Shown: piece after piece, positions 41,601 through 63,689 of the stretch
Layout: each line of letters opens with the position of its first letter
Position numbering within the stretch: position 1 is the first letter of the stretch
DNA from: Oligoflexales bacterium
GTDB lineage: Bacteria > Bdellovibrionota_B > Oligoflexia > Oligoflexales > JAPPIL01
Reading direction: 5' to 3'
Assembly: GCA_965215515.1 (NCBI GenBank)
Contig: OZ244057.1
Coordinates: forward strand, 544,001-608,000
Length of the DNA: 64,000 bases
Program-made: the position numbers and the translations under genes
The notes under the pieces: model-generated
The model's database searches: none
What the model saw: only the letters and a program-made list of their open reading frames with translations
Told to the model about the DNA's origin: nothing

Positions 41601-41609
41601 GGGCAAGGG

Positions 41610-41933: not shown

Positions 41934-42019
41934 AAAGCGGTAAGTAGCCGCGCTGCGCGGCCTTGCTGAACAGCACATCAGGAGCTGGCAACCGTTTAAT
42001 AAGGAGTGGCCAACGCTTG

Positions 42020-43600: not shown

Positions 43601-43683
43601 GAATGGACAAAATATGTCCCTCGGTTGATAGAATGGGCTCTAGAAATGAAGAGACAGAATTTTTGTTCAACCAACAGTTATCA

Positions 43684-44782: not shown

Positions 44783-44860
44783 GCTAGAGGGTACACCTGC
44801 TTGCTCTTAAACCCTCAGTTAGTCTTGGACAGTCGTAGCAATGGGGGTTGTTGGCTAGTT

Positions 44861-46957: not shown

Positions 46958-49900
46958 CAAAGACGACATAAAGGATTGGCCTAAGAAAATTTGCCAACGC
47001 TACGAGAGCTACTTAAAAACATCCTTCTTCTTTAAATATCCTAATCTCAGAAAATCTTTCCAAGAAGCATTGAGGAAAGAAGGCAGTCTTATGAAAGATC
47101 CAATCCCTGAAGAATATCGTAGTTTTAAGAAAGGCTTGACAGCTCAGGCATTAGCACAGAAATTTTTCCCTAGTAACAGCGATAGTCTTCTTCCAACTCT
47201 GATCGACGAGCAACTTTATACTCACCAAGAGAATGCTATTCGAGCCGCACATTCAAATTTTAACATCGTCGTTGCCACTGGCACAGCTAGCGGCAAGACC
47301 GAGAGTTTTCTTTACCCGATATTGTTCGAGCTGTATCAACAATATCTTGACGGCGAGCTTGAGAGGACTGGTGTGCGTGCTATGATTCTTTATCCTATGA
47401 ATGCACTTGCCAACGATCAGCGCGAGCGTCTTGGTGAAATCTGCAAGAATCTGGAAGATGCTGGTTCTAGGTTCAAGCCAACATTTGGGCAATACATCGG
47501 TCAGACACCTAATAACGCTCGTGACTATCACCGTAATGCTACAACACGAAGAGAAGATCGTCTGCCTGGAGAGCTTATTTTCCGTGATGATATGCGAAAA
47601 ACACCACCCCACATATTGTTGACCAACTACTCGATGTTAGAATATCTGCTCATTCGTCCTGACGACAGTCCACTGTTCGACAACGGTATGGGTAAACATT
47701 GGCAATTTATTGTGCTCGACGAGGCACATCAGTATCGTGGTGCTAAGGGCATGGAAATGGGTATGCTTATTCGGCGACTCAAACAGCGGTTACGAGACGG
47801 AGGGCGACAAGAGCCATTCCGTTGTATCGCTACCAGTGCCACCATTTCTTCTGGTAAAAGTGAGCAAGATAAGCAAGTGGTTGCTAATTTTGCTAAGGAA
47901 CTCTTTGGAGAAAAATTTTCTGCAAATGATGGCATTATTTTTGGTGATCCTGCACCCTCTAATAACGAAACACCTACTCGTTATCACGCCTTCTTTCGAG
48001 CACTTGAAGGGGCGTTTCTAATCCATAAAAACGGCGAAGATATTGTGGTACTCAATCGCAAAAGTGAGGGCGAAAACGAGAAGAGTGCAGTACCATTGGA
48101 AATAGCCTTGTGCAGAGAATGTGGCCAGCACTACTACGTTGGACGAGAGCATGAGGGAAAACTAGTGGAAGCTATACGAGATCCTAGTGACCCCCACTTC
48201 GGTGTAGACTACTACCTGCCTTTAAAGGATGACGATAATACGGGTGATGGACACGCACTATTGTTGTGCAGGAGCTGTAGTAAGATATCAAAATCCAAGC
48301 CAGAGTGCAGTTGCAATGCGACAATTTTTGTCAAAAAATGCGAACCACATAAAGATCATGCAGATCAGCTAGTGAAATGTGAGATCTGTGACTATAAGCG
48401 CGGTGGCATTGGTGACCCAGTGCAGGAAATTGTGCATGGCACTGATGGTCCCAATGCGGTTATAGCGACTGCTATGCACGAGTTATTGCCAGAGAATAAG
48501 CGCAAGGTACTTGCATTCGCTGATAGCCGTCAGGAAGCAGCGTTCTTTGCTTGGTACGCTGAGGATTCTTATGAAAAATTACGCGATCGCAACCTCCTTT
48601 TGAGAGCTATGACATTCAGTCGAGTTGACAAGGAGGGCTTATCCATAGATGATCTTAAAAACCGCCTATTACGCCAGTGTGAACAAGCTGGTCTATTTGT
48701 TAAAGCAGAAACCAAAGAGCAAAAGAGTTGGCAGGTACTAACGTCAATTTTGCGTGAAGCACTTACAGATGAAAGAAGATTATCCTTGAGCGGGGTTGGA
48801 TTAGTTAAGTGGTTTGTTAAGATTCCAGAAGATTTGATTGTACCAGAAATTATGCTACAGCCGCCGTGGAGTTTCACAAGAGAAGAAGCACTTTGTTTAA
48901 TTGGTTACCTATTGGATGAGCTACGCCTACACCGTGCCATGAATTTGCCAGAGAATGCCGCTACTCCAGATTGGAACGATGTCTCACCTGATCGTATACA
49001 AATTAGCTATTGCAAGGGGAAACCAGGAAGACAAAAGGGCGTGTCACAGTGGGGAAGTCCTCAGTCTGCTGTTGTCAAATACTTTCTGCGCAGGCTACTA
49101 GAAGGTAGTAACCTTCTAGTCGAGCAACATCAGGGAGAGTCAACAAAGCTGATGGAAGAAATATGGGATGTAATAAGAAAAATCAAAGATCCCCCAATTC
49201 TCTCTACTGGCTCGAATAACGGAACGTTTCGCCTCAACCCATGCTGGCTGCGCATCAAACCCGTTAAATTTGATGAGATATGGCAATGCGACACCTGCGC
49301 AAGTCTGAGTACTCACAACATTAGAAATGTTTGTCCACGCAATCGTTGCCCTGGCTTTCTGAATAATGTCGAGGAGAAGCAAACTGAGGAAAACCACTAC
49401 CGAATCATCTACAAAAGCACTGAGTTACCTCCTTCACTTAGTGCCAAAGAGCATACGGCACAGATTGATACCGACAAGGCACGGCAGCGGCAGCAAGAAT
49501 TCAAGGACGGAAAGATCCATCTACTAAGCTCTTCGACAACTTTTGAGGTTGGTGTCGATTTGGGTGATCTAGAAATCGTGTTTCTCCGTAACGTGCCACC
49601 AGAATCTTTCAACTACATCCAGCGTGTCGGACGGGCAGGAAGACGGGATACACCAGGTTTGGCAATAACCTACTGTCGTCGTAATCCACACGACCTCTAT
49701 CATTATGAAGATCCAAATAGAGCAATAAAGGGTACTATACACCCACCACACCTGAATATGACAAACGAAAAAATTGTATTGCGACACATGGTCGCTACCG
49801 TACTATCAGCGTTCTTCAGAGAAAATGAAGGTCGCTTCAAAGGCGTGGAGAGCTTTATCAAGAACTGGGACAGCCCGGCGATGGTAGGCGATGTAAGACA

Positions 49901-51197
49901 ATATTGTGAGGAAAACAACAAATTGCAAGATTACTTATGTCAAATTGTGCCCCAAGACATGCACGAGAAAACAGGGCTTGAGAATGGTGAATGGGTCAAA
50001 TATATTACTGGCGACAACAGTCGCCTCGCAATATCAGAGAAAGAAGTTAGCGAGGACTATAAACACATGGATAAAATAAGAGAAGAGGAGGCTAGTAAGA
50101 AAAATTATAGCCGTGCAGGTCGCATCGTCAGTCGCATGAAAACAATTGCCAGTGAGAAAACATTAGATTTTCTTTCTCGCAAAGCTGTTATACCGAAATA
50201 TGGCTTCCCCGTAGATGTTGTCGAGCTAGATACTCGCTCCGCGGATAAAAACAAAAGTGGCATCACTCTCCAGCGAGATCTATCTCAAGCTATTGCTGAG
50301 TATGCTCCCGATGGAAAAGTGGTAGCCAACAAGCTAGAGTGGAAATCGTGTGGAGTAAAAGTTGTATCTGGCAAAAGATTTCCTGTAAGATATTATCAAT
50401 ACGATAATGCTCGCAATTTTAACCAGTGGAACGAGGGTGATCCATCCAAACCGGAAGATGTTGAAAAAAAATATCTTATCCCAGAGTTTGGCTTTGTTAC
50501 TCCCTTTCTTGAGAAACCCAAACCACCGTCCAGACGGACACCACGTCTTTACACAACGCGTCCATTTTTTTTAAAGCCTAAAGAAGAAAATGAACTTGAG
50601 CCTAAAAACATTCTCGGCGTACAGGTGATCGCTCCACAGCCAGGTACTCTGGTTATTCTCTGTGAGGGAAAAAACATGAACAGATTCTATGTTTGCCTTG
50701 ACTGTGGTTGCCACATGGCAAAGACAAAAAAAGAACACAAATCTCCTTTTGGCTCAGATTGCAAAGGAATGTTAAAACGGTTTTCACTCGGCCACGAAAT
50801 GGTCACAGATGTTGTGCGCTTACAATTTCCAGATGTGTGTAACGAGTGGAAAGCCTATTCTGTTGCTTATGCCGTCTTACTTGGTACAGCGGAAACACTG
50901 AGCGTTCCTGCCAGTGACCTGAATGTAACCATAACTGGTGGCCGCAAGCCAGACGAATCCGCTATCGTGCTCTATGATAACGTACCTGGTGGAGCGGGGC
51001 TGGTGGCACAATTGGAACAGGAGGAGGTATTTCGTGAGATGATCACCAACGCGAAGAACAGAGTTGTAGGCAATTGCGGCTGTGATTCCAGTTGTTATGG
51101 TTGTCTGCGTAGCTACCGCAACCAATTCGCACACCCTCACCTAGATCGTAGGCTGGCACTAGAAGTTCTCGAAGGTGTAGAAAAGAACGAGATCTGA
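46950..51197 (+). CDS. DEAD/DEAH helicase with C-terminal DUF1998 Zn domain (DruE/DrmA-like defence helicase)
   Basis: LYTHQ, TGTASGKTE, YPMNALANDQ, DEAH, SAT, QRVGRAGR, YGFPVD, LYDNVPGGAG and C.CDSSCYGCL motifs. Confidence 0.92.
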   Translation: MPDKDDIKDWPKKICQRYESYLKTSFFFKYPNLRKSFQEALRKEGSLMKDPIPEEYRSFKKGLTAQALAQKFFPSNSDSLLPTLIDEQLYTHQENAIRAAHSNFNIVVATGTASGKTESFLYPILFELYQQYLDGELERTGVRAMILYPMNALANDQRERLGEICKNLEDAGSRFKPTFGQYIGQTPNNARDYHRNATTRREDRLPGELIFRDDMRKTPPHILLTNYSMLEYLLIRPDDSPLFDNGMGKHWQFIVLDEAHQYRGAKGMEMGMLIRRLKQRLRDGGRQEPFRCIATSATISSGKSEQDKQVVANFAKELFGEKFSANDGIIFGDPAPSNNETPTRYHAFFRALEGAFLIHKNGEDIVVLNRKSEGENEKSAVPLEIALCRECGQHYYVGREHEGKLVEAIRDPSDPHFGVDYYLPLKDDDNTGDGHALLLCRSCSKISKSKPECSCNATIFVKKCEPHKDHADQLVKCEICDYKRGGIGDPVQEIVHGTDGPNAVIATAMHELLPENKRKVLAFADSRQEAAFFAWYAEDSYEKLRDRNLLLRAMTFSRVDKEGLSIDDLKNRLLRQCEQAGLFVKAETKEQKSWQVLTSILREALTDERRLSLSGVGLVKWFVKIPEDLIVPEIMLQPPWSFTREEALCLIGYLLDELRLHRAMNLPENAATPDWNDVSPDRIQISYCKGKPGRQKGVSQWGSPQSAVVKYFLRRLLEGSNLLVEQHQGESTKLMEEIWDVIRKIKDPPILSTGSNNGTFRLNPCWLRIKPVKFDEIWQCDTCASLSTHNIRNVCPRNRCPGFLNNVEEKQTEENHYRIIYKSTELPPSLSAKEHTAQIDTDKARQRQQEFKDGKIHLLSSSTTFEVGVDLGDLEIVFLRNVPPESFNYIQRVGRAGRRDTPGLAITYCRRNPHDLYHYEDPNRAIKGTIHPPHLNMTNEKIVLRHMVATVLSAFFRENEGRFKGVESFIKNWDSPAMVGDVRQYCEENNKLQDYLCQIVPQDMHEKTGLENGEWVKYITGDNSRLAISEKEVSEDYKHMDKIREEEASKKNYSRAGRIVSRMKTIASEKTLDFLSRKAVIPKYGFPVDVVELDTRSADKNKSGITLQRDLSQAIAEYAPDGKVVANKLEWKSCGVKVVSGKRFPVRYYQYDNARNFNQWNEGDPSKPEDVEKKYLIPEFGFVTPFLEKPKPPSRRTPRLYTTRPFFLKPKEENELEPKNILGVQVIAPQPGTLVILCEGKNMNRFYVCLDCGCHMAKTKKEHKSPFGSDCKGMLKRFSLGHEMVTDVVRLQFPDVCNEWKAYSVAYAVLLGTAETLSVPASDLNVTITGGRKPDESAIVLYDNVPGGAGLVAQLEQEEVFREMITNAKNRVVGNCGCDSSCYGCLRSYRNQFAHPHLDRRLALEVLEGVEKNEI

Positions 51198-51382
51198 TAC
51201 CACCAGTAGTAGACCATTGCCGTAGCCTACAATCACATTCAGAAATTCACACAACCAAACTTGTTTGTTAAAACTGCAAGCTGATACATCAAAGTGGAAA
51301 ACAGTGCGTTAACTACCCTACCTTGATCGGTCGAGTGTGTGCAGGCTATCATATATTATATATCAGCTCTGGAGAAAATCAA

Positions 51383-52570
51383 ATGGCATTAGAAATGGTA
51401 GTGCTGTTTTTAGTTACCTTACTGGTTACATGGGTAGCCACCTTTTTCTTTCAGGTTAAACCAATTAGCAGACGAGCTTCCAATGCTGAAAAAGATCTTA
51501 CAGAAGCAAAAGCACGAATTAGTGCGTGGGAAAACACGGAGGCTCGCTTTTCCTCTTTGGCATACAAGGCTCTAAATTCCAATAGCGAACACTACCTAAA
51601 CCTTGTAAGTGAACGATATAGTCAACATGATAAAGATGCAAAAAATGACTTAGATAAACGACAAGAAGCCATAAAAACCCTTGTCTCACCTATAAGTAAG
51701 AGCCTGTCAGAATTTGAAGGTAAGGTTGGTGAGATCAAGAAAGAGTACGGATCGGTGACAGCAAAGGTTAGCTCTATGAATGACATCCAAGATAAACTAC
51801 GCTCGGAAACTAATCGCCTAGTGAGAGCTCTCCAACGTCCAGAAGGGCGCGGTGCCTGGGGAGAGCTTCAATTCCGTAATGTGGTTGAGATGGCTGGGAT
51901 GGCAGAACACATAGATTTTGAAGAACAAAGCACTATCTATGGCAAGGAAGACAAGTCACGTCCTGATGCAATTATTCGCCTTCCTAATGATAGGCTGCTT
52001 GTGGTGGATACAAAAACGCCAATTGACTCATATTTGGAAGCATCAAAAGCATCTAACGAAGACGAGCGCAAGGTTTATATGAAGAACTATGTAAACAATT
52101 TCAGAAAAAGCATAGATGACCTTTCTTACAAGAGTTATTGGGGTAAGCTACAGGATAAGCTAAAACGTGTACCTGACTTCGTAGTCATGTTCGTACCAGG
52201 AGAGGCATTCTTTTCTGCTGCCCTAACCTCTGACCCTAAACTAATTCAATATGGAGTAGAGAAGAATGTAGTGATTGCCAGTCCAACTACTCTTATAGCT
52301 CTTTTGAGGACAGTTGCCTACTGCTGGCAGCAGCACAAGTTCACCGAAAATGTGGAGGAGGTTTCAAAGCAGGCAAAAAAGCTATTTGAAAGCATCAAGA
52401 CGTTTGGTGAGCATATGTCAGGTCTTCGTAAAACTTTAGAAAATGCAGTGAAAAAATTCAACGACAGTATTGGCTCACTTGAGCGAAATGTATTACCAAA
52501 AGCAAGGAAATTTGTGGATTTAGGTGTTATTCCTGCCAAGGAGGAAATTCCGGAAATATCCTCCATCTAA
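51383..52570 (+). CDS. rmuC: DNA recombination protein RmuC
   Basis: N-terminal TM, RGAWGE.Q, RPDAII.LP...VDTK, DFVVMFVPGE and SPTTLIALL motifs. Confidence 0.92.
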   Translation: MALEMVVLFLVTLLVTWVATFFFQVKPISRRASNAEKDLTEAKARISAWENTEARFSSLAYKALNSNSEHYLNLVSERYSQHDKDAKNDLDKRQEAIKTLVSPISKSLSEFEGKVGEIKKEYGSVTAKVSSMNDIQDKLRSETNRLVRALQRPEGRGAWGELQFRNVVEMAGMAEHIDFEEQSTIYGKEDKSRPDAIIRLPNDRLLVVDTKTPIDSYLEASKASNEDERKVYMKNYVNNFRKSIDDLSYKSYWGKLQDKLKRVPDFVVMFVPGEAFFSAALTSDPKLIQYGVEKNVVIASPTTLIALLRTVAYCWQQHKFTENVEEVSKQAKKLFESIKTFGEHMSGLRKTLENAVKKFNDSIGSLERNVLPKARKFVDLGVIPAKEEIPEISSI

Positions 52571-52602: not shown

Positions 52603-54438
52603 TTATGTAATAAGAACCTCAACTGGTATCTGTTCCTGAATCACCTTTGGAACTATCGCTAGGCCGATCTGAGAGCATTTTTCGTATATCCAGTTACTGT
52701 TGCCGCTAGATGTAACTAATATAGATCGGGCATGTAATTTCATTTGTTCGACAAAATCAATGCCCGTTAATTCAGAGTCTCCTAACTCGTTGTCTATCAA
52801 CAGGACGTAGTCCTCATCATTTTTCTCTAATTTCAGAATGATCTTTCTAGCTGACTTTAAATCCTTTGCATACACAGTTTTGATGTTGTTTTTCTCAAGA
52901 TCGAATCCAGCAAATCTTTTTTGCCAAACCTTATAGACAAGTGGATCGTCATCAACCACTACAACAGTCATATTCGCTGCGAATGCTAAGCTTGCTGGGT
53001 AGAGAATGTTTTCCTCTGCTTGTGGAATTAAAATCTCAATTGTTACTCCCTTGTCTTCTGGTGACTTGATATCGAGTGTGCCACCCCATTTGCTAACATC
53101 TTCGATGGCAGAAGAAAGGCCAACCCCTGTGCCATCCTTCTTGCCAATGGTTACACCTCTCTTACCCACCTTTTTCAGGTTCTCTGTGGCTATGCCTTTG
53201 CCATTATCGGAGATGACAATAGAAACCATACCACCGTCTGTGCTAACACGTGTCTTCACAAACCCTGCTGAGTCAATAGCCTCAATAGAGTTCTTATACA
53301 GATTGATGAGATCACGCTTGAATTTGTTCGGCTCTACCTCACAGTAGGAAGCAAAGCCATCGCCATCACAGCTAATATCAAATTTAATATCCTTACCTTC
53401 ACACAACTTCGACAGTTTGATCTCTCCGACGATTTGATAAATTAGAGCACTAACATGACAAGATCGCAGAATATCCTTAGGCTGATCTACTGAAACCTTA
53501 CTCATAGCTGCCAATCGCATTTCGTCTTCCGTCAAACTGCCAATCTTCGGTATATCAGTAACTGTGTTGCTGATTCTTTCAAAAACGGATTTTATGATTC
53601 CAACTTGAGCATCTTTTTGATCTAAACGATCTACAGCTGACTCTCCAATTACAAGAGAAGCGATAACGTCATGCCTTACTCTTGTTGCTACTTTGGCTAC
53701 TTGTGCTTTAGAAATTGCTCTTCTCGCAATAGCTTCGTTGCTCTTGCTCCTCTTGATGTACTTAAGGAGAATGGTGTTAAATTTGAAAATCTCTGAAAAC
53801 CTATTCAGTCCGTGATTAGACTCCAGAAACTTTTCCTTATTCGCATTCTTATCCAGCTCTTCAGAGTAATCATGAAGGGGAGTAGAGACACTTCTAGCTA
53901 GCCTCAGTATGTGTAAATATAGGTAAAGAGAAATTAAGGAAAATAGGATGCAAATTAAAGTGGCGAACCCCAAAATAGTCAGCACAGGAATTTGATAACC
54001 GACGTGAAGTATGCCTACTTCGGTATCGTGATAATAAATAGGCTCTGAAACCAAAACATGCGGCATCCCATTGTTCCAGTAATAGCTCTTGTTATTTATT
54101 TTTGCTAACTCTGTGGGATTCAGTCTCCTGTGATCAGAGATATAAACCTTTCCGCTGGGTAAAGTTATCCAAACATTCTTAAAGTTTCCCGACTTAACCA
54201 GTGTCTTTACAACTTGCGTAGGTAAAAAATCTCCGCCTAAAGCTACTGGCTGGCTTAAGCTTTTGCTGACAACTCCCAACGTCTGCAAGAGCTGACTGTG
54301 GTAGTAATAAGCACCAAATAGTAAGCCAACAAGGAAAGTGCTGACTGCACCAACGATAAATATCTTCAGCGATAACGCCTTTGCTTTTTTCTTAGCAAAG
54401 GCAATTATAGATTGAGGTTCATTAGGCTGATTTTGCAT
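52603..54438 (-). CDS. membrane hybrid sensor histidine kinase (2 TM, HATPase, C-terminal receiver)
   Basis: RVRHD H-box, NLYKNSIEA, ISDNGKGI, GTGVGL, and VVVDDD...LLID receiver. Confidence 0.9.
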   Translation of the reverse strand: MQNQPNEPQSIIAFAKKKAKALSLKIFIVGAVSTFLVGLLFGAYYYHSQLLQTLGVVSKSLSQPVALGGDFLPTQVVKTLVKSGNFKNVWITLPSGKVYISDHRRLNPTELAKINNKSYYWNNGMPHVLVSEPIYYHDTEVGILHVGYQIPVLTILGFATLICILFSLISLYLYLHILRLARSVSTPLHDYSEELDKNANKEKFLESNHGLNRFSEIFKFNTILLKYIKRSKSNEAIARRAISKAQVAKVATRVRHDVIASLVIGESAVDRLDQKDAQVGIIKSVFERISNTVTDIPKIGSLTEDEMRLAAMSKVSVDQPKDILRSCHVSALIYQIVGEIKLSKLCEGKDIKFDISCDGDGFASYCEVEPNKFKRDLINLYKNSIEAIDSAGFVKTRVSTDGGMVSIVISDNGKGIATENLKKVGKRGVTIGKKDGTGVGLSSAIEDVSKWGGTLDIKSPEDKGVTIEILIPQAEENILYPASLAFAANMTVVVVDDDPLVYKVWQKRFAGFDLEKNNIKTVYAKDLKSARKIILKLEKNDEDYVLLIDNELGDSELTGIDFVEQMKLHARSILVTSSGNSNWIYEKCSQIGLAIVPKVIQEQIPVEVLIT

Positions 54439-55246
54439 AAGACCTCAAGTCTTCATAGAGAATCTGACCTAGTTCAGTAAAAGTCACACCGTCGTAAGTA
54501 TTGAGTGATTTTATGAAATCATCTCTCAATGAGTTCAATACCTGATTGTAATACTTTTGCTCTTTCTTATCAGGGGTAACTTGGGTCAGGAATCTAACCA
54601 TAAAAGCCAAAGCAACCGTCGCATGGAAAGCTTGAATTGCTGGTCTATATGTTTTTCTAACGTAAGAAAAAACAGGAATGTCTAGTCCCTGTGCAATTAT
54701 TGGGTCAGCTGTCTGATAGATGTAAAGGCATTGATGTCCTAGCTCATGAGCAATGTTAATGGCAAGCTCTAGTTTCTTATTCGGCACACTCAGAAAAACG
54801 CTACCTTTAGCTAGGTGTGTGCTAAAGCCGATGCCAGCACTGCGACTCTTCAGCTTGCTGATATTTATCGGTACAATATGCTTTACCACTTCGTCAAACA
54901 ACACCGAAACATCTTGATTGCTACTTCCCTGAACCAAATATACCGCGGTCTTGAGTGTTTCAAGCTCTTGAGAAGAGATATTGCCCAACGAAAGATTTTT
55001 ATCGTCTTTACCATAGAGGTATAGCTGCTCAAGTTTTTCAGAGATATTTTTGTCTAGCAAGATACGATCGTCTATCTCAAAGAGTGTGCTCAAGTCATGC
55101 AAATGCTCTAGGTTACTCATCCAAGGGGAATAGACTTTGTAGTTGGTACCTAGGACAGAGTTAACCAGCCTCACGGTCTTTACCTTGAAAGTACAGCTCA
55201 ACTCTTGAATCTTGGCCAATCCATATTTTCCAAAAAACCACTCCAT
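54422..55246 (-). CDS. HExxH-motif peptide-modification protein (alpha-KG-HExxH dioxygenase-like)
   Basis: GFS..LAKGSVFL, IAHELGHQ.LY and FSYVR...RP..AFHA, the pattern of RiPP-associated HExxH proteins. Confidence 0.8.
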   Translation of the reverse strand: MEWFFGKYGLAKIQELSCTFKVKTVRLVNSVLGTNYKVYSPWMSNLEHLHDLSTLFEIDDRILLDKNISEKLEQLYLYGKDDKNLSLGNISSQELETLKTAVYLVQGSSNQDVSVLFDEVVKHIVPINISKLKSRSAGIGFSTHLAKGSVFLSVPNKKLELAINIAHELGHQCLYIYQTADPIIAQGLDIPVFSYVRKTYRPAIQAFHATVALAFMVRFLTQVTPDKKEQKYYNQVLNSLRDDFIKSLNTYDGVTFTELGQILYEDLRSYAKSA

Positions 55247-55254
55247 TCACACCT

Positions 55255-56765
55255 CTAGTGTAGAACCGTGCGTTCTAAAAAGAAGGTGATGCCACCGTCT
55301 TGAACACCAACACTCTTAACCCGTTTTGAATTAACAGATACTAGCAATTTTTTTTCAAACAAAGGCACTAGCCATACATTGTCCTGTACGTATTGGGATA
55401 GTTTTTTTACAGCAGCTACCCTCTGCTCAAGTGTGTTTGAAAGTTGCGCTTTGTTAAACAAGTCCTCATACTCCTTATCGTGCAAGGGGAAGTGCGGCCG
55501 CTTAGGTGATTTTTCCCCTCTAAGCAAGCCAAATAAGATCAACGGATCAGCAACACCAGCACCGAGTGAAGTGAGACGAAACAGTGTATCTTTGTTGTCA
55601 GTTGGAAAGAACTTAACTGTTGACCGCACCAGTTTGATTTTTAAACCAACCAACGCAAGTTGTTTCACCAGTTCTCGAATATAACCTCCGTATTTTTCAT
55701 CATCCAAACTTCCGTAAAAACTGGGATCTCATACTGTTTAGTTAAGTCAAGGTTAGGCACGCTTTTTAGCAATTTTTTAGCTGCTTCTGTGTCTCTAACT
55801 ATCTTTACCTCTGTGCGCCCCCAAAAGTGCTGGGCTAGAAATTCGTGAGCTGGGGTATATGTCTCAACACCTTCAGCAATTTTATCTCTGTCGATGGCGA
55901 TGTTTATCGCTTTTCTAAACCTTATGTCGGCTGCTATTGGGTTGTTGAAATTGAAGTTAATACTGGTGAGACCAGCAGCACGCTTTGATATCACCATATC
56001 CATATCTTTCCTAGGAACTGTCATTTCAATATCAGCATTACGCAACTCGCTTCCGTAGTACAGCGCAATTTCTTTTGCTGAAGTCACATCACCTACCTTC
56101 TCCAAAATGAGAGTTTTTGCATCTCGATTGTGAGCTTTGACTTTGTAGTTGCCAGCTCCGATCGGCACATCCTTCCAAGCCTCGTAGTCATCTGTGAAAG
56201 CTTCGATAGGAACGATAGAAAAATACGGACTAGCTAAGGAATGTAGAAATAAAGGGTTAGGTTTTCTCAGTTTTACGCTCAGAGTTCTATCATCAATAAT
56301 TTCTATACCGCTTACCTTCCCACTAACAAATTTTGTACTCCCTTCTACAGCTTCAGTCCCCTCTATTTCATTAAGGAAAGGAACAAAAAATGATCTGCGG
56401 TTAGAGTAAAAGCCACGAAGAATAGAAAACTCTAAGTCCTTTGCAGTAACTTTACGACCGTTATGAAACTCAAGTCCTTTCCTTATTCTCAAGATGTATG
56501 CTTCTTTTTCGTAATCCCAGTTGAAGGATTCCAGCAATCCTGGTTTCAGATCGTAAGAGTTCGATGTATAAACAAGCTGCCCTAGTACCGGAACGACAGT
56601 TGCTCTTAAAACATCGACTGGTACATCTTTGACAAAAGGAACTTGTCCTCCTGAGTCTAACTGAACACGAAGCACATCTTGTTTCGATGCTGTTGCTGAC
56701 TTGCTTTCAGATGTTGATACTACTGTCATGATAATTCCCCAAGTTGTTAGCATAAAATAGAGCAT
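55255..56765 (-). CDS. family-5 (OppA/DppA-like) solute-binding protein, split by a 1-nt frameshift
   Basis: PGLLES, FHNGRKVTAKDL.FS, PIGAGNY, FRKAINIAIDR and C-terminal VPLF; frame restored by one extra T at 55716-55720. Confidence 0.85.
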
Positions 56766-56766
56766 A

Positions 56767-56973
56767 TCACCTTACATCATGTTCATGTCGAGAGTGAACA
56801 ATCAGGTCTTCTCTCAATATTGGCGTTGTTCTTTCTTTCAGCTTCTCCAAAATTTTTTTGCTTGCCATAATGGGAGGAGCAGTATCTGTAACTACAGGAT
56901 CAATAGCCCAGCCTTCATTTGTCTGAGAGAACCCCAGTGCTGCCGCCAACATCAGTAGTGTTTTCCTGAACAT
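56767..56973 (-). CDS. 68-aa exported peptide, candidate RiPP/signal precursor
   Basis: SD aggaggt just upstream of the ATG; signal-peptide-like N-terminus; C-terminal VHSRHEHDVR. Confidence 0.78.
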   Translation of the reverse strand: MFRKTLLMLAAALGFSQTNEGWAIDPVVTDTAPPIMASKKILEKLKERTTPILREDLIVHSRHEHDVR

Positions 56974-56988
56974 GATACCTCCTCTTAA

Positions 56989-58395
56989 TCAAACACCTCG
57001 ATTAGAAACTAAGCCAAGGCTTTTGCGTTTATGTATGTAAGTCGTATATGGTAAATCTATCAAGCGAGCCGCTTCTACACGTTTTCCATCGGCAAGCATC
57101 ATAGCCTTTTCGAGGTAGTCACGTTCCAAACGATTTCGTATCTTTTCGACGAACTCCTTATAGGTAGGAAAATCTTCTGGCCTTTCGATTTTTTTGAGTG
57201 ATAATCTGCTGTCATTGTTTTCAAACAAGCTTGAGAATGAAAAGCAATCAATAACGTTACCAGCTAGGGCGTAGGCTTTGCGTATCTCACTACTCAATTC
57301 CCTGACGTTTCCAGACCATGCACGGGTCTTTAAGATTTCTATCGCGTCATCAGTGATACGTTTTTGTGAACCGGTTTCTAAATTCTTTTTTTCGACGATA
57401 AATCTGGCAATTGGCTCGATGTCTTCTTTTCTCTCTGCTAGGGATGGCACATGTATGTGAAATATATTTAGCCGATAGTACAAATCTTCACGAAAATTGC
57501 CCTTCCTCACCTCGTCGAATAAGCTTTTGTTGGTGGCAGCAATAGCTCGAACATCAATCTTTGTTGATGTATTACTCCCGACTGGGACAACTTCTTGCTC
57601 CTGCAACACTCGGAGCAACTTAACTTGCATGTCGAGAGGCATTTCTCCGATTTCGTCTAAAAATATCGTTCCAGAGTCAGCAGCAACAAATTTCCCCGTT
57701 TTGTTTCTGTATGCTCCTGAAAAAGAACCTTTGGTGTGCCCGAACAACTCACTTTCAACAAGTTCTTTAGGAATAGCTCCACAGTTTATAGCGATGAAGT
57801 TGTTAGATTTTCTTTGCGAGTTGTTGTGAATTGAACGAGCTACCTGTTCTTTACCTACACCTGATTGGCCAGTAATAAGGACATTTTCACTGGCTTTAGC
57901 GTATTTATATACCTCTGTGGCAACGTTTGCTAAAGCGGAGGAATAGCCACGCAGGTTTAATACTTTTTGAATCCACCTATCGTTGGCCTCTTGCTCTTCA
58001 TTAGAGAGCTTGCCATATTTTATTCTCAATGACGCTATTTCAGAGATAAGCAGGATAACCTCTTTGCTCTTCTGCTTCAGGTAGGTGTGATCAGCTCCAG
58101 CTGAAGTACACAAGACCGATTCCTCGTGAGATAAGCACGCCGAGAGGATGACCGTATGCATCATGGGATCAATCCTCTTGATCGCTCTCACTACTTCGTC
58201 GCCTTTGGTAGGCATATCGAAGTCCACTATTGCCATCCGAAACGGCGTATCGTCTGCCTTAGCCTGTTCAATGGCGCGCAGAGCCTGTTCTGGATCGGTG
58301 AAGGTCGCTAAAGGAATCTGTCTTTCGCTGAAGAGTGTCCTAGTAGCCGTTAGGAACATCTCATCATCGTCGATAGCTATGACCCTTGGATTCAT
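56989..58395 (-). CDS. sigma-54-dependent response regulator (NtrC family)
   Basis: Receiver IDDD/VDFDMP, GQSGVGKE, ESELFGH.KGSFSGA, FLDEIGE, FREDLYYRL, WSGNVREL and Fis HTH; SD ggagg before the ATG at 58395. Confidence 0.93.
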   Translation of the reverse strand: MNPRVIAIDDDEMFLTATRTLFSERQIPLATFTDPEQALRAIEQAKADDTPFRMAIVDFDMPTKGDEVVRAIKRIDPMMHTVILSACLSHEESVLCTSAGADHTYLKQKSKEVILLISEIASLRIKYGKLSNEEQEANDRWIQKVLNLRGYSSALANVATEVYKYAKASENVLITGQSGVGKEQVARSIHNNSQRKSNNFIAINCGAIPKELVESELFGHTKGSFSGAYRNKTGKFVAADSGTIFLDEIGEMPLDMQVKLLRVLQEQEVVPVGSNTSTKIDVRAIAATNKSLFDEVRKGNFREDLYYRLNIFHIHVPSLAERKEDIEPIARFIVEKKNLETGSQKRITDDAIEILKTRAWSGNVRELSSEIRKAYALAGNVIDCFSFSSLFENNDSRLSLKKIERPEDFPTYKEFVEKIRNRLERDYLEKAMMLADGKRVEAARLIDLPYTTYIHKRKSLGLVSNRGV

Positions 58396-58446
58396 GGTTT
58401 CCTCCGTGCTCAAGTAAACATTTTCGTCCGCAAAAGGCAGAGTGTA

Positions 58447-58462
58447 GGCAAAGTTCGTGCCA
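58447..58462 (-). promoter_or_regulatory. sigma-54 (-24/-12) promoter of the peptide-signalling operon
   Basis: Minus strand reads TGGCACGAACTTTGC, matching TGGCACG-N4-TTGC. Confidence 0.85.
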
Positions 58463-58818
58463 AAACATATAACATCCTTAAATCACAGATTTTTTATGCG
58501 GAAGGGGAAACAGCAGTCAAATCTCTACAAGATGTTGTAGCCCTCCAAGCTCAACTCCTCTAAGCAGGTCAACAAGCTATCCAGATAACTGGAAAAAGAG
58601 CGTATGCGATCGATCTGGTTATGGCTACAACTTTTTTTGTGGTTTATGGCAAAATCAGATTTAATTACTGATAAATTATTAAAACTAGGGGACTTATTTC
58701 TGAAAGTTGATTGCAACAAAAAGTTGTAGCTGCTGGGTTGAGGGGGGACTACCAGTCATGGCTGTTCTCCTCTTCCGAGGAGCTTGCGGTGCGAATGACG
58801 TGGATGATGGGCTTGTAG

Positions 58819-58866
58819 CGCAATATGTAACGCAGTATGTAACGCAATATGTAATTGAGCATGTAA
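58819..58866. repeat. 12-bp tandem repeat (3 near-perfect + 1 degenerate)
   Basis: cgcaatatgtaa cgcagtatgtaa cgcaatatgtaa ttgagcatgtaa. Confidence 0.85.
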
Positions 58867-58919: not shown

Positions 58920-58945
58920 ATTCATGTAGTGCATGAGTTTTGTGC
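58915..58945. repeat. 31-bp direct repeat, copy 1 (palindromic operator-like)
   Basis: ataatattcatgtagtgcatgagttttgtgc; 29/31 identical to 60419-60449. Confidence 0.9.
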
Positions 58946-58950
58946 GTTAA

Positions 58951-59529
58951 ATGAGGAACGAGAAGTATTCGTTACTATACCAGATTGCCCTTGAGCAGCA
59001 GGGGCTGTTTACCGCCAAGCAAGCTAAACAGGCAGGCTTTGATGGGCGCAATCACCCATACTATGTGGCGAGAGGCGATTGGGAAAAAGAACACCGCGGG
59101 ATATATCGTTTGTGTCACTTTCCCAACGAGCCATCATCGGAATATACCCTCTGGTCTCTGTGGTCATGCAACCGGGATGGTGAGCCTCAGGGTGTCTACT
59201 CTTATGAAACGGCACTCAGTATTTATGACCTCACAGATCTAAATCCTGCTAAGATAACGATGACAGTACCGCTTGGCTTTCGCCGCAACGCACAGATACC
59301 CGGTATCCTTATTCTCCGCAGGGGAAAGCTTACATCAGCTGATTGGCAGGCGATAGAGGGTTACAGAGTTACCACCCCTGTTAGGACTTTGTATGATGTT
59401 ATTTTTTCCGACCATATACCTGAGGAGTTCATCTATCAGGCGGTAAGAGAGGGCTTCGCAAACGGACTATATCCCAAACGCAAGTTGCAAGAATACGGAA
59501 TACTCGACAAGGTAAAAAAATACCGATGA
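58951..59529 (+). CDS. abiEi: type IV TA AbiEi-family antitoxin
   Basis: A.EQQGLFT, RGIYRL, SYETAL..Y.L and VTTP.RTL.D motifs. Confidence 0.88.
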   Translation: MRNEKYSLLYQIALEQQGLFTAKQAKQAGFDGRNHPYYVARGDWEKEHRGIYRLCHFPNEPSSEYTLWSLWSCNRDGEPQGVYSYETALSIYDLTDLNPAKITMTVPLGFRRNAQIPGILILRRGKLTSADWQAIEGYRVTTPVRTLYDVIFSDHIPEEFIYQAVREGFANGLYPKRKLQEYGILDKVKKYR

Positions 59530-60386
59530 AATATAAATCGGCAACTGCCCTTCGACATGCAATACAGCACCGCCTGAGTTTAATCTCAGAAGGTAGGGAA
59601 GAGAGCGTGCAACGTCTGCGTCGGCATCTTGCCTTTGAGCGTTTGTTGGCAAGAGTCTTCAAGCAACCATCATCACCTTGGGTTCTGAAGGGTGGTTATG
59701 CTATGGAGCTGCGGCTACAAAGCTCTAGGACAACTAGAGACGTTGATCTCGCTGTATCGGAGGAGCGTCTGCTCACTTCAGGACACGAGCAGGTAGCAAA
59801 AGCTGTGCATACTAGGCTAATGGAATCACTAGCTGAAGATTTGGGTGATTTTTTCTCGTTCAAATTAAAGGAAAAGTACACTAAATTGTTTGCACCGCCT
59901 AGTGGTGGTGTCCGACTCTATGTTGATGCGATACTAGATAACAAACTGTTCTCCAGATTTCATATAGATGTTGGAGTTGGTGATGCCGAGATAATGCCTT
60001 TAGAAAACCTGACTAGTAGAAATCTGTTGGCCTTTGCCGGCATCGACTGCCCGCCGTTCCCATCTATTCCACGTGAACAGCATTTCGCTGAAAAAGTGCA
60101 TGCCTACACAACGCTGTATAATGGTCAAATGAGTTCACGCGTCAAGGATTTGATCGACATGGTGCTACTCATCCAAGGCGGCAAGATGGACAAAGTGAAA
60201 TTAGCAAAGGTGCTACCTCAAACTTTCAGCGTACACAAGAAGCATGCATTGCCACAAAAACTGCCAACACCACCTGCAAAATGGGCAACGAAGTTCGCCA
60301 CTCTTGCAGCAGAATGCCATTTGGAGTTGAGTCTTGAAGATGCCTTTGATCTCGTTAGCAGATACTACGATGAGTTGTCTACCTGA
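59526..60386 (+). CDS. abiEii: AbiEii/AbiGii nucleotidyltransferase toxin
   Basis: WVLKGG..ME.R...RTTRDVDL, AEKVHA and SRVKDL.D motifs; ATGA overlap with the antitoxin. Confidence 0.9.
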   Translation: MKYKSATALRHAIQHRLSLISEGREESVQRLRRHLAFERLLARVFKQPSSPWVLKGGYAMELRLQSSRTTRDVDLAVSEERLLTSGHEQVAKAVHTRLMESLAEDLGDFFSFKLKEKYTKLFAPPSGGVRLYVDAILDNKLFSRFHIDVGVGDAEIMPLENLTSRNLLAFAGIDCPPFPSIPREQHFAEKVHAYTTLYNGQMSSRVKDLIDMVLLIQGGKMDKVKLAKVLPQTFSVHKKHALPQKLPTPPAKWATKFATLAAECHLELSLEDAFDLVSRYYDELST

Positions 60387-60704: not shown

Positions 60705-61445
60705 TTGACAATGGACACAGAATCGAGCACGCATAGCAATGGGCAGGTGGTACCTGTCTTGGATGAAACGACGTTTGAGACGGTTTCAGCAACTATCCTG
60801 CAGGTAGTGGGTAACACTGTCCCTTTAGTAGGTGCAGTTTCTGGGCTATTTCTGCAGGAAATTTCTGGAAGGCGACTAAAACGATTCAAACTTTATATTG
60901 AGGTACTAAACAACAAGTATGAAAATTTGGAAAAGCTCTGTCACTCTCACGATACGAGACTAAATCTAGTAGAGGAAGGGGTTTACCACGCGACTAGAGC
61001 CTACTCAGAGGAGAGGATAAAGCACATTGCCTCTATCATCGCTAATGGCATCTCTGGCAAGGGAAAAGAGGAAACTGAAGCAAGTCGAATGCTGAAAATT
61101 TTGGCAGAGCTGGAGGACGAGCAGATTATCGTGCTGGCTTACTACTTGGATAAGAACAGGGATAACGAGGAGTTTTACAATACTCACGCCAATGTGTTGG
61201 AACAAAAGATTGACTTCATCGGTGGTGGTATTGAGCGATCAGACGAGGCTACAATGCAGGAAACAGCCAAGCTACAACTTGTTCGCCTCGGACTGTTGCA
61301 GCATATTTTCAAAAAGCCACGCGAAGGCGAAATTCCTGATTTCGACCCGAAAACTGGCATGATTAAAGCATCGGGTTACATGCTGACTTGGCAAGGCAGC
61401 ATGTTTTTGCGCTACCTCGGTCTTGCTGAACCAGGGGAACTTTGA
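60705..61445 (+). CDS. hypothetical protein (DUF4393/Abi-alpha-like layout)
   Basis: VPLVG N-terminus, IASIIAN...KIL.EL...I..L helical core and wHTH-like C-terminus; SD gaggag. Confidence 0.55.
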   Translation: MTMDTESSTHSNGQVVPVLDETTFETVSATILQVVGNTVPLVGAVSGLFLQEISGRRLKRFKLYIEVLNNKYENLEKLCHSHDTRLNLVEEGVYHATRAYSEERIKHIASIIANGISGKGKEETEASRMLKILAELEDEQIIVLAYYLDKNRDNEEFYNTHANVLEQKIDFIGGGIERSDEATMQETAKLQLVRLGLLQHIFKKPREGEIPDFDPKTGMIKASGYMLTWQGSMFLRYLGLAEPGEL

Positions 61446-61458
61446 GGGTTATGTACAC

Positions 61459-62817
61459 ATGAAAAAAGACAAATCAGGCAAAAGATATGCTTTCCCCTTT
61501 GGAATATTCCAAAGAGGAGTGATTGACATTACACTCAGCAAGTGGGAAATTCTCAAGCAATTGACCTTCATTCAGAAAATTTTGTTTCTGCTGGGACTTC
61601 GACACGAGAAAAATATTGAAGACATGGAGCGTAGAATCACTAATTTAGCTACAAGAATTTCTCATGATGAAATTTTTGGTTACGACTCTGATTTTGGAAA
61701 GCAGTTGTTCACAATCAACATGGAAGTTGGCAAGAGAAATTGGGATGTGGAAAAGAACCTTACACCTAAAGATTTAGAAAAAGCTGATGCCATCGTAGAC
61801 TCCAATCGTATAATAAGAAATAGGTTTATCGGTTTAGTGTCAGAGCCTCCGCTAAACATGTCTCTTATTGATGCTGATCCAGAAGTATGCCTAACCATTG
61901 TTCCAATGACCCCTTATGTGCTAGTGCAAAGCATTCGCTATTTTATTGATGTAAATCCGCACTACACATTTTCTGCCATTAGACAATCAAACCATCAGTA
62001 CAAGGATGAATTGATCGCATATCTCTACGAGTTGCTTGACCTCCAAGCAAAAAATGCCATGAGCTTGCTGGGGTTCTTAGAATTGTGTCACACTATCCAG
62101 CAAAAGAAGGGGTATTCTTCACTTATCAAGGAGGAACAGGACGCTTCCGAGAAAGCCAACTTGATTATAATTAGACTAAAATCATTTATAGAAAAAGTTA
62201 CAGCATTTGTAGGGGTGATATACGGGGACACTTCTGTAGATTCTTCTAATAAGCACAAATCACGTGAGAAAAAAATTGCCAGCCATATCAGAGAAAGCCA
62301 CAAGAAGCACCCTTACTACCAACAACTCACTGCTTATATTAAACGAGAAAACTTTGCAGAGCTTGACAACTATAGAACTGGTATTTTGCACAAAAAGGGG
62401 TCATCTGAAATGCAGCCCCATAGTTTTGTGGGAAAGAAATTTGACGAAACCCCTCTCAGAAAACTTCTTGGGGTAATTATGGAACACCGACAAAGGAGTT
62501 CAACAGCATTGATAAGTGCATTAGCGATTATGACTGACGAACTTGTAAACATGGAAGCACCGGAAAAGCGTTTCGTGATGTTTATGGATCTGCTTGAACT
62601 CACAAACACGCTATATCCTGACAAAAAGGAAAAGCAAATCAACATGCTTCCTGCTATGTTGCCAAAGCTTTTTATCATGTGCGAGGAGTATTTTGGGGTT
62701 GACGAGCCACAAGACGCTGATCAGTCAGCAGATGTTGAGAAGTCAGCACAAGCTGGAGAGCAACATGAGGGTAAGCAACAGACAGACAAACATCCACAAG
62801 GGGACAAACAGTCGTAG
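61459..62817 (+). CDS. hypothetical protein with HEPN-like RxxxxH motif
   Basis: LDNYRTGILHK in a helical region; likely co-transcribed with the upstream ORF. Confidence 0.55.
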   Translation: MKKDKSGKRYAFPFGIFQRGVIDITLSKWEILKQLTFIQKILFLLGLRHEKNIEDMERRITNLATRISHDEIFGYDSDFGKQLFTINMEVGKRNWDVEKNLTPKDLEKADAIVDSNRIIRNRFIGLVSEPPLNMSLIDADPEVCLTIVPMTPYVLVQSIRYFIDVNPHYTFSAIRQSNHQYKDELIAYLYELLDLQAKNAMSLLGFLELCHTIQQKKGYSSLIKEEQDASEKANLIIIRLKSFIEKVTAFVGVIYGDTSVDSSNKHKSREKKIASHIRESHKKHPYYQQLTAYIKRENFAELDNYRTGILHKKGSSEMQPHSFVGKKFDETPLRKLLGVIMEHRQRSSTALISALAIMTDELVNMEAPEKRFVMFMDLLELTNTLYPDKKEKQINMLPAMLPKLFIMCEEYFGVDEPQDADQSADVEKSAQAGEQHEGKQQTDKHPQGDKQS

Positions 62818-63065
62818 TAGCAAAACAACCATGCACACAACTAGTGGTACCCCGTAACTTGTTCTACAATATTTCACACTTTTTCCCATGAAAACTCAAA
62901 GTTTTTCTACCAATTTTCTCATCACACTATTCTGTTGAAATCATTGAATAGCCTAGTTTTCGCTACGAAACGTTGTAGATACATTTCTACGACACCTTGC
63001 AGAAGTTAATACTTAAAAAATTTCTTTCCAAGCAGTTCTAGTCGTTTAGCTAAAAAAGTAAATTT

Positions 63066-63081
63066 TGGCACACTCCTTGTA
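63066..63081 (+). promoter_or_regulatory. possible sigma-54 promoter
   Basis: TGGCAC-ACTCC-TTGTA (correct spacing, GT instead of GC at -12). Confidence 0.4.
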
Positions 63082-63123: not shown

Positions 63124-63594
63124 ATGAGCAACGCGCAAGGAAAGCCATGGCTGAACGAGGATGGCAGCACCAAGTCGGACGAGGAGTTGAGGGAGATTAC
63201 CCCGAACTGGGGGGAGAGTATTTGGGAAAAATACCTCTCTACATTTGAGGTTAAACAGAAAGAAGATTCTGTTTTATCACCTTCTATAGTGGACACCTTC
63301 TCCGCAGAGGAATGTGCCGGATTGTTATTTTCCCTAGCAAGTGAGGAGAAACATCTCTGCCTCAAGGTTGCGCTCAATGTCTGTATCCGTGAGCTTTCCC
63401 CCAGACAAAGGGACATCATTATTGGCTACTACTGGGATGGTAAAACGGTCAATGAAATGGCTGCAAGCATGGGGATCAGCACACAAGCTGTATACAAGGC
63501 TATGAGAGTGGCTTTAGCAAAGCTAAAGGCAAGCCTGACAAGTGGTTCGATGCAGAAGCGGATGATGGCAGCAAGAGAAATACTGGCCTCCTGA
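63124..63594 (+). CDS. sigma-70 region-4 domain protein
   Basis: ELSPRQRDII...GKTVNEMAASMGIS..AV; ATG at 63124 with SD. Confidence 0.8.
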   Translation: MSNAQGKPWLNEDGSTKSDEELREITPNWGESIWEKYLSTFEVKQKEDSVLSPSIVDTFSAEECAGLLFSLASEEKHLCLKVALNVCIRELSPRQRDIIIGYYWDGKTVNEMAASMGISTQAVYKAMRVALAKLKASLTSGSMQKRMMAAREILAS

Positions 63595-63689
63595 GGTTTA
63601 CAAAAGGTTGGTATTTAGTCTTTTTGGTTGGTTATTTCCCTATTAGTGAGGGGACAATTTTTTTAATCACCAATTTAGGAGGTCACATA

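Follow-up and report, generated by a model that had tools for sequence, protein, structure and literature searches.

We describe a cassette of five co-directional genes in a stretch of 64,000 nucleotides from an Oligoflexales bacterium (GenBank assembly GCA_965215515.1, contig OZ244057.1, positions 544,001 to 608,000 of the forward strand). This whole stretch is called the window below, and positions without a locus label refer to it. The cassette encodes an NtrC-type sigma-54 activator, a small protein with a Sec signal peptide, a family-5 solute-binding protein (SBP), a homologue of the alpha-ketoglutarate (aKG) HExxH-type peptide oxygenases, and a hybrid histidine kinase (Table 1). We consider it moderately probable that these genes serve an integrative conjugative element, circulating in the Bdellovibrionota, as its cassette for sensing and regulation, and that they act as a self-activating switch for conjugation. 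The output of this switch is indicated by enhancer boxes and sigma-54-type promoters that precede both the cassette and the transfer genes of the element. Our reading of the input branch, comprising the small protein, the HExxH enzyme, the SBP and the kinase, is less certain than that of the output.

Table 1. Features of the cassette, of its proposed second site of action and of the surrounding element (window coordinates; aa, amino acids).
Feature	Position	Strand	Remarks
Cassette	52603-58462	minus	5 co-directional genes: activator, small protein, SBP, HExxH, hybrid kinase (listing of open reading frames and sequence)
NtrC-type response regulator / sigma-54 activator	56989-58395	minus	468 aa; receiver (REC), AAA+, Fis-type helix-turn-helix (HTH); Pfam
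Small Sec-signal protein	56767-56973	minus	68 aa: signal peptide and conserved C-terminal tail (KKILEKLKERTTPILREDLIVHSRH...)
Family-5 SBP, N-terminal piece	55665-56765	minus	366 aa; stop caused by frameshift
Family-5 SBP, C-terminal piece, other frame	55255-55713	minus	open reading frame 55255-55707, 150 aa; homology restarts at ~55713
aKG-HExxH-type oxygenase homologue	54422-55246	minus	274 aa; no signal peptide
Hybrid histidine kinase	52603-54438	minus	611 aa; 2 transmembrane segments around a ~100-aa periplasmic domain, H-box, HATPase_c, receiver
Cassette sigma-54 promoter, TGGCAC-N5-TTGC	58448-58462	minus	TGGCACGAACTTTGC; kept in 10 of 12 related loci
Proximal enhancer box	58525-58540		CTACAACATCTTGTAG; palindrome arms perfect
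Middle enhancer half-site	58623-58636		TTGTAG arm kept, other arm degenerate; midway between the full boxes, like the middle box of relatives
Distal enhancer box	58714-58729		CTACAACTTTTTGTTG (minus strand); 1 mismatch to CTACAA-N4-TTGTAG
Second enhancer region	62963-63002		box CTACGAAACGTTGTAG (62963-62978) and degenerate copy CTACGACACCTTGCAG (62987-63002)
Second, sigma-54-like promoter	63066-63080	plus	TGGCACACTCCTTGT; -12 element TTGT, not TTGC
Transfer operon	from 63124
sigL1	63124-63594	plus	156 aa, sigma-70 region 4 (HTH) only; first gene of the transfer operon; good ribosome site in front
sigL2	63624-63941	plus	second sigma-70-region-4 protein
AbiEi-type gene	38009-38776
Replic_Relax protein	38954-39781
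Fragmentary serine-recombinase reading frames	39941-44145
DruE-like giant helicase	46950-51197
RmuC	51323-52570
AbiEi/AbiEii pair	58951-60386
Two uncharacterized genes	60705-62817

A self-activated operon

The five genes are tightly packed. Both the listing of open reading frames (ORFs) and the sequence bear out exactly the gaps (15, 1 and 8 bp) and the overlap (17 bp) given in an earlier note on this DNA, and the sigma-54 promoter that the note placed in front of the operon is equally present. An exact match to such a promoter within 64 kb is by itself not rare (28 of 100 shuffled sequences contained at least one); the weight of the match derives from its place, as it occurs at the equivalent position in 10 of 12 related loci. 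The activator is listed as an ORF of 474 aa (56989-58413); a start at the ATG at 58395, which is located behind GGAGG and yields a length close to the 467 aa of its relatives, appears likelier. The protein comprises a receiver (PF00072), an AAA+ sigma-54 domain (PF00158, E = 3.7e-68) and an AAA lid (PF25601), followed by a weak match to the Fis-type HTH (PF02954). These domains, together with the -24/-12 promoter, the boxes upstream of it and an rpoN gene in the host genome, are those of the NtrC family. The usual loop motif of sigma-54 activators is GAFTGA, and the loop of the cassette protein reads GSFSGA. Including the cassette gene, four strong sigma-54 activators are encoded in the host genome. 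Given the conserved promoter and enhancer boxes, activation of the operon by its own product via sigma-54, already assumed in the earlier note, is very probable.

Enhancer boxes at two sites

Upstream of the cassette promoter, a repeat search revealed 16-bp palindromes of the form CTACAA-N4-TTGTAG. Three related loci (L002, L003 and L007) contain three such boxes each, spaced by ~90 and ~101 bp, and two others (L004 and L008) contain two boxes with at most one mismatch. A second enhancer region is found in the window in front of sigL1, the first gene of a conjugation operon, with a distance of 4.6 kb between the two promoters; the promoter at this second site lies ~100 bp downstream from its box (62963-62978). 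In L002 and L003, too, the sigL1 homologue has boxes in the same arrangement in front of it, together with a promoter of the form GGCAC-N5-(T/C)TGT. With at most one mismatch, the box occurs at four sites in the whole genome (2.18 Mb), namely two at the cassette promoter, one at 62963-62978 and one at a distant position (G000 334458). The likely output of the system, the element's own conjugation operon, was missed by the earlier reading.

Related loci fall into groups with different boxes. Loci of group A contain 3-6 CTACAA boxes each (at most one mismatch), compared with 0.04-0.09 expected from base composition; the boxes cluster upstream of ntrC and beside the transfer genes, with one exception (L003, 14034) that is away from both. 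Group B (L011, L014-L016, L137, L138, L140 and L142) contains zero CTACAA boxes. Its own box, TTACGAA-N2-TTCGTAA, occurs three times upstream of ntrC at the same spacing of ~100/89 bp, with fewer than 0.01 expected per locus, and once or twice more upstream of the transfer-gene promoter, GGCAC-N5-TCGC. At both sites, L013 has a further variant of its own (GACACGAA..TTCGTGTC), and box types A and B never co-occur in one locus. In the recognition part of the activator HTH, most of group A has LPYTTYIHKRKSLGL, group B has LAYTTYISKRFKFGL and L013 has IAYSTYLSKRVKFGL. Box type and DNA-binding helix of the activator change together between clades. The boxes might also have been binding sites of sigL1; we reject this in view of group B, which has no sigL1 homologue (no tblastn match) yet harbors boxes at both places. 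Because group B gave no such match, the activator is the factor common to both sites, and there is good comparative evidence that it would drive its own operon as well as the transfer operon.

The transfer genes

Behind sigL2 and partly past the window end (L040), the transfer operon consists of genes for a TrbC/VirB2-type pilin, an 807-aa VirB4/TraC ATPase and a CagX/VirB9-like protein. Further genes of L040 encode TrbI/VirB10, an FtsK-type coupling protein (two ORFs here as well as in relatives), a Replic_Relax protein and a recombinase fragment. The domains P-loop_TraG/TraC_F_IV, T4SS_pilin, TrbI, FtsK_SpoIIIE and Replic_Relax mark these genes as conjugation machinery. The same operon is located behind sigL1 in L003/L051 (VirB4 80% identical) and behind the cassette in L008/L053 (58%). 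In L002 sigL1 is accompanied by a sigL2-like gene, a TraU-like protein and a VirB11-type ATPase. At ~1.3 kb behind the kinase, seven loci (L007, L013, L015, L134, L137, L139 and L140) encode a 280-aa protein, a TrwB-type coupling protein and, where the locus extends that far, a VirB11-type ATPase. In L141, a pilin and VirB4 are found beside the cassette.

The location of the cassette within a mobile element, as described in the earlier note, is borne out by these transfer genes. The GC content drops from ~0.55 to 0.40-0.47 at ~35 kb of the window and rises again ~14 kb past the window end (L040 ~16 kb). The cassette was probably acquired by this host, because the closest relatives of the host are Oligoflexales metagenome-assembled genomes (a high-GC housekeeping protein is 86-89% identical to two complete chromosomes of this kind, which places the host in the Bdellovibrionota), yet a search for HExxH relatives in two genomes of the same genus and one of the same family gave no match. 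Among 60 other genomes of the order, five contain HExxH relatives, with identities of only 26-36%.

The small region-4 proteins that head the transfer operons (window 63124-63941; L002 10631-12272; L003 327-1337) occur singly or in pairs, have no region 2 and share a conserved N-terminus, KPWL..DG..W..WEEYL; they may be anti-sigma-like, act as activators or belong to the relaxosome. Another contig of the genome of L002 (L052, G061:C42) has a further transfer locus, with a sigL1-like gene and no CTACAA boxes. Operons headed by sigL1 are not all under the control of a cassette, and L052 is not counted as support.

Conservation of the gene order

Conserved synteny had been named beforehand, in the earlier note, as a test that could speak against its proposal, and the gene order is indeed conserved. 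A protein search yielded 58 relatives of the HExxH protein, the closest being 61-77% identical and derived from metagenome assemblies. Scans of species-representative genomes yielded 26 loci, tallied by BLAST of called ORFs: 21 from Bdellovibrionota (Bdellovibrio-like, Bacteriovoracaceae/Halobacteriovorax, Oligoflexia and Silvanigrellaceae), one from a genome labelled "bacterium" and four from Alpha- and Betaproteobacteria. The full five-gene order is present in 14 of the 26 genome loci (L002-L009, L011, L013-L016 and L019) and in 8 of 18 further loci from a metagenome scan, in one of which (L141) the small gene was missed by tblastn. Almost all of these loci are from Bdellovibrionota. Some loci are duplicates: L004-L006 are near-identical to each other, L133 duplicates L004, and L139 duplicates L013.

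The individual neighborhoods in the 26 genome loci are as follows. The SBP gene is immediately upstream of HExxH in 20, down to 27% HExxH identity, and is absent from this place in the four proteobacterial loci, L022 and L026. The kinase gene is immediately downstream in 19 (L017 is cut by the contig end), so that the order SBP-HExxH-kinase is found in 18. An ORF with a signal peptide immediately precedes the SBP gene in 18 (L010 and L017 are cut there), and an NtrC-type activator is located upstream in 14.

Remote sets of SBP and HExxH, mostly with a kinase (L012, L020, L023, L027, L028, L029, L033 and L034; 26-38% identity), have no NtrC gene; in four of them (L012, L020, L023 and L027) a small signal-peptide protein precedes the SBP, and some of the remote sets belong to the host's own order. 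The core of four genes is thus older and more widespread than its link to conjugation.

The HExxH enzyme

The assignment of the fourth gene to the aKG-HExxH peptide-oxygenase family, made in the earlier note, holds, with model score, profile and fold all in agreement. The protein scores 45.0 bits against TIGR04267 ("aKG-HExxH-type peptide beta-hydroxylase"; IPR026337; cut-off 40) over residues 121-264. A profile of the cassette family matches ChlH (8s5f) with E = 1.5e-12. The AlphaFold model has a pLDDT of 94.6. In a Foldseek search it matches the HExxH domain of ChlBH (8s5f; E = 6e-10, TMq 0.66) and SjiH (22ob; E = 5e-6), all other matches having E > 0.1. The residues H167, E168, H171, R197, R201 and H208 are invariant in 29 sequences and align with HEHRHQ ... 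RP ... HA of ChlH.

According to two studies (PMC12636437, PMC13060819), members of the family hydroxylate His, Asp, Phe, Gln and Pro, PflC/PosC oxidatively remove a C-terminal tetrapeptide, and the known members are encoded in clusters for peptides that are ribosomally synthesized and then post-translationally modified (RiPPs) together with radical SAM, MNIO, transporter or peptidase genes. A dependence on O2, Fe(II) and 2-oxoglutarate is described in the latter (PMC13060819). Among the island ORFs scanned there is neither a radical SAM partner for the HExxH protein nor an ABC (ATP-binding cassette) permease or ATPase for the SBP, in line with what had been stated before.

The small protein

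The product of the second gene had been described as a peptide. This is apt for the window, where a 68-aa ORF with a Sec signal is found, and does not extend to the family at large: the protein has 144-170 aa in other full cassettes and is short (63-80 aa) only in the closest clade. All small proteins share only the N-terminal signal peptide and a C-terminal tail. The latter consists of a helix-like segment (E/K)I(L/M)xxL(K/L)xxx(T/S)P, an acidic position and a short, clade-specific end; the last 6-10 residues include RHSFIR, KASFIAGH, RHNFW, DHSFA and RHEHDVR in different clades, with the helix ILxxLKExxTP conserved. The tail contains Pro, Asp and His, residues that are hydroxylated by known members of the enzyme family. 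The form in the window is without the ~90-residue middle part, as are three relatives of 63-80 aa. The contigs of two of these three equal in length those that carry the two closest HExxH relatives, which suggests, short of proof, that they are part of the same cassettes. The short form is thus a feature of the clade, with signal peptide and tail as the minimal unit.

Neither Pfam nor NCBIfam gave a match to the small protein, and a search of the protein atlas gave no usable match. The predicted structure of a 160-aa form has a mean pLDDT of 60.8, with a moderately confident alpha/beta middle part at 70-80. A complex prediction for the intact SBP of L003 with its small protein scored 0.00 (mark 0.32), which counts neither for nor against binding. 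Precursors of this kind have a precedent in the bufferins: in one report (PMC12452194), cytoplasmic non-haem iron enzymes modify precursors with a Sec signal, some of them protein-sized, before export.

The binding protein and the kinase

The nearest solved relatives of the SBP are the peptide binders DppE, OppA, MppA and PrgZ (PrgZ, E = 2.3e-13). Fifteen cassette SBPs share an invariant DxxDP motif, which presumably corresponds to the Asp by which OppA/DppA hold a peptide at its free amino end. The SBP is an orphan beside a kinase with a periplasmic domain, permease and ATPase genes not being seen adjacent to it in the window. In the kinase, H256, the N and G boxes, and D549 and K598 of the receiver are invariant; its ATPase domain scores 55.8 bits with HATPase_c versus 19.2 bits with HATPase_c_5.

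Proposed mechanism

We propose the following sequence of events. The small protein would be made with its Sec signal peptide, and the cytoplasmic aKG-HExxH enzyme would oxidise, most likely hydroxylate, its C-terminal tail before export by Sec. The tail, probably trimmed to a short peptide, would be bound by the orphan SBP in the periplasm, which in turn would set the activity of the hybrid kinase. The kinase would hand its phosphate straight to the activator, and the phosphorylated activator would turn on its own operon, resulting in positive feedback, as well as the transfer genes.

Several observations weigh against this proposal. Concerning the output, the second promoter has TTGT instead of TTGC as its -12 element. 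The box is also less frequent in the genome (4 sites) than the reversed control pattern (15 sites), so that the argument from the boxes rests on their clustering and conservation. In the scanned flanks of four remote sets (L012, L020, L023 and L027) no transfer genes were seen, and the link to conjugation is confined to a subfamily. Concerning the input, the small protein is a candidate substrate of the HExxH enzyme, and the genes of the two are separated by the SBP gene. The predicted long form looks more like a periplasmic protein than like the precursor of a pheromone, and neither the operon nor the island ORFs scanned include an exporter, a protease, a processing enzyme or a route through the outer membrane. 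Hybrid kinases usually depend on a histidine phosphotransfer (Hpt) step. Since no Hpt domain (PF01627) was found in the whole genome (G000; estimated 93.9% complete), we assume direct transfer of phosphate from kinase to activator, with the receiver of the kinase as a modulator. Finally, the SBP gene is frameshifted in this genome, and split genes also occur elsewhere, namely the SBP in L009 and the kinase in L014; decay of some copies, or assembly error, is not unique to the window.

Alternative readings

The frameshift bears on the status of the copy in the window. The SBP had been taken as one gene; instead it is divided between two frames, and comparison with intact homologues of 493-517 aa places the loss of one base at ~55714-55716, beside a run of five T. 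The break is probably in the DNA and not a slip of assembly, because the contigs of two runs (depths 48.8 and 9.0) carry the identical sequence; two other runs (X5 and X6) cover parts of the stretch away from this site. The two runs, compared as contigs and not as raw reads, are from one study, are possibly the source data, and are not independent. With its SBP gene out of frame, this genome probably has a disabled input branch and an open loop. In a rival reading, this one copy of the cassette, as distinct from the family, is a decaying remnant without present function. The shortened small protein and the fragmentary serine-recombinase ORFs of the element fit this view, whereas each of the remaining four genes has its full length and keeps every catalytic residue, promoter and boxes are intact, and the short form of the small protein is common to three relatives, hence not a one-off deletion. 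We regard decay of this copy as a serious possibility that we nevertheless slightly doubt. The copy is probably impaired by the frameshift, and the finding reported here concerns the family, not this copy.

Two more specific versions of the proposed switch differ in where the signal acts, and we consider them about equally likely. In the first, a sharpened form of the quorum-sensing loop of the earlier note, the modified tail is trimmed to a short peptide in the periplasm, passes out of and into cells via porins, accumulates with the density of carriers of the element and is caught by the SBP of neighboring cells, with the different C-termini as pherotypes. The operon indeed combines, under its own activator, a signal gene, a modifying enzyme, a receptor, a kinase and a regulator; the conserved helix of the tail with its clade-variable end resembles a recognition sequence with a variable core, and in the closest clade the protein is reduced to signal peptide and tail. 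The solved relatives of the SBP, including PrgZ of pCF10, bind short peptides, the DxxDP motif being invariant, and control of conjugation by peptides is established in Gram-positive bacteria (PMC5552905). However, neither an exporter nor a processing protease is encoded, the protein is long (144-170 aa) in most relatives, the SBP is broken in this genome, and a peptide of 45 residues cannot cross the outer membrane unaided. Quorum sensing is at this stage a hypothesis, and we judge this version unlikely. Should it nevertheless apply, the clade-specific C-termini might tell the element whether neighboring cells already carry it, a suggestion we hold with equal reserve.

In the second version the small protein stays within the cell that made it and modulates SBP and kinase in the periplasm, comparable to the action of CpxP on CpxA. 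The hydroxylation state of the protein would then report the cytoplasmic supply of O2, Fe(II) and 2-oxoglutarate, on which the enzyme family depends (PMC13060819), such that the transfer genes would be switched on only in well-supplied cells. A Sec signal without an exporter, the structured middle part of the 144-170-aa proteins of most relatives, and the fact that the genes for small protein, SBP, HExxH and kinase keep together even where NtrC or transfer genes are lacking (L012, L020, L023 and L027) are in favor of such a private circuit. Against it, the closest clade does without the middle domain, and there is no evident reason to route a metabolic read-out via the periplasm. This version, too, is no better than a doubtful candidate.

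A different input is conceivable, in which the ligand of the SBP is foreign, for instance peptides or cell-wall fragments of potential recipients or prey, and small protein and HExxH are accessory or otherwise used. SBP-dependent kinases for outside ligands are described, for example the binding protein CBP with the hybrid kinase ChiS (PMC12704726 and PMC10667598), the murein-peptide binder MppA is one of the solved SBP relatives, and the hosts belong to a phylum of predators. This reading gives no account of why the tail protein and HExxH keep a fixed order with SBP and kinase across identities of 27-77%, and we consider it improbable. An unrelated antibiotic RiPP cluster that came to be here by chance is rejected, since even in distant relatives the order with SBP and kinase is fixed. 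We retain the self-activating conjugation switch as the preferred reading.

Other genes of the element

Both ends of the low-GC stretch (window 38954-44145; L040 10500-13549) contain Replic_Relax genes (two in total) and several fragments of serine recombinases; the island may be composite or consist of two elements in tandem. Evidence for an integrase is confined to these fragmentary serine-recombinase ORFs, and a search for direct repeats of at least 14 bp flanking the island found none, only matches of 12-13 bp, a size expected by chance. The DruE-like helicase (1415 aa, with a C-terminal MrfA Zn-binding domain) matches Druantia DruE with E = 5e-160 (PADLOC). Its ORF is overlapped by the preceding ORF of a 718-aa protein and followed by RmuC (44801-52570), and the element probably carries this region as Druantia-type defence cargo. 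Several cassettes have genes for heavy-metal P-type ATPases and a multicopper oxidase as neighbors (L013 176-2383, L016 1124-2560 and L022 6008-8146), which are likely metal-resistance cargo of the same elements. Just before the start of abiEi at 58951, approximately four head-to-tail units of a 12-bp repeat (TGTAACGCAGTA-like; 58814-58861) and an inverted partial copy (58943-58952) are found, which may serve as an operator of the AbiEi/AbiEii pair.

Comparison with known systems

How Gram-negative conjugative elements time their transfer has been worked out in few families; where cell-cell signals take part, these are mostly acyl-homoserine lactones. We found no published account of the gene combination described here, or of sigma-54 or peptide control of Gram-negative conjugative elements, in a literature search that covered subscription journals sparsely. 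The cassettes represent a widespread modular switch with readable wiring, consisting of two promoters, clade-specific boxes and a matching DNA-binding helix, and amenable to reporter assays. If the signal is indeed a peptide that acts between cells, pheromone control of gene transfer would extend to diderm bacteria, as the first such case; the oxygenase would likewise be the first of RiPP type to make a signal for a two-component sensor.

The closest counterparts of the individual parts are found in different systems. The aKG-HExxH oxygenases ChlH/ChlBH, BpmH, PflC/PosC and PesO share with the cassette enzyme the HExxH motif, a score above the family cut-off, the fold and a co-encoded candidate substrate with a conserved C-terminal tail. 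To our knowledge, enzymes of this family have so far been known only from natural-product clusters. The known ones make natural products in RiPP clusters, whereas the cassette enzyme is encoded between an SBP and a sensor kinase in the operon of a mobile element, and in its candidate substrate a Sec signal peptide takes the place of a leader. The family thereby gains a candidate substrate with such a signal peptide, and the occurrence of an aKG-HExxH oxygenase outside natural-product clusters points to a role of bacterial peptide hydroxylation in signalling. The bufferins and other MNIO-modified precursors are similar in that a cytoplasmic non-haem iron enzyme acts on a precursor with a Sec signal (PMC12452194). 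They differ in the enzyme family, and the cassette has neither Cys motifs nor a partner protein and would serve signalling, not metal buffering.

With respect to the sensor, the pair CBP-ChiS of Vibrio likewise consists of an orphan periplasmic binding protein without a transporter beside a hybrid kinase with a periplasmic domain; LuxP-LuxQ and TorT-TorS are further sensors that depend on a binding protein. Systems of the CBP-ChiS type sense metabolites from outside, whereas the cassette adds a secreted protein and a modifying enzyme, with a sigma-54 output to conjugation genes. The pheromone system of pCF10 (cCF10/iCF10, PrgZ) shares an element-encoded family-5 peptide binder, a Sec-exported precursor, the C-terminal part of which would be the signal, and an output to transfer genes; PhrI-RapI of ICEBs1 is another instance of peptide-controlled conjugation in Gram-positive bacteria. 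In both, the peptide is imported, unmodified, and acts on a cytoplasmic regulator, whereas the cassette's peptide would be sensed by a kinase in the periplasm and probably be oxidised. The agr/com circuits, to which the cassette had been likened, also unite signal gene, maturation enzyme, kinase and regulator in one self-activated operon. The likeness does not go further: the cassette is without a processing exporter of the AgrB/ComAB type, its kinase has two transmembrane segments and a periplasmic domain and is not a polytopic HPK10 kinase, its regulator belongs to the sigma-54 activators, and a binding protein stands in between. The parts of the cassette are therefore of known kinds; new is their combination in a sensory operon that includes a RiPP-type oxygenase along with a Sec-signal protein as its candidate substrate, and that is connected, by boxes that differ between clades, to the transfer genes of a Bdellovibrionota element family.

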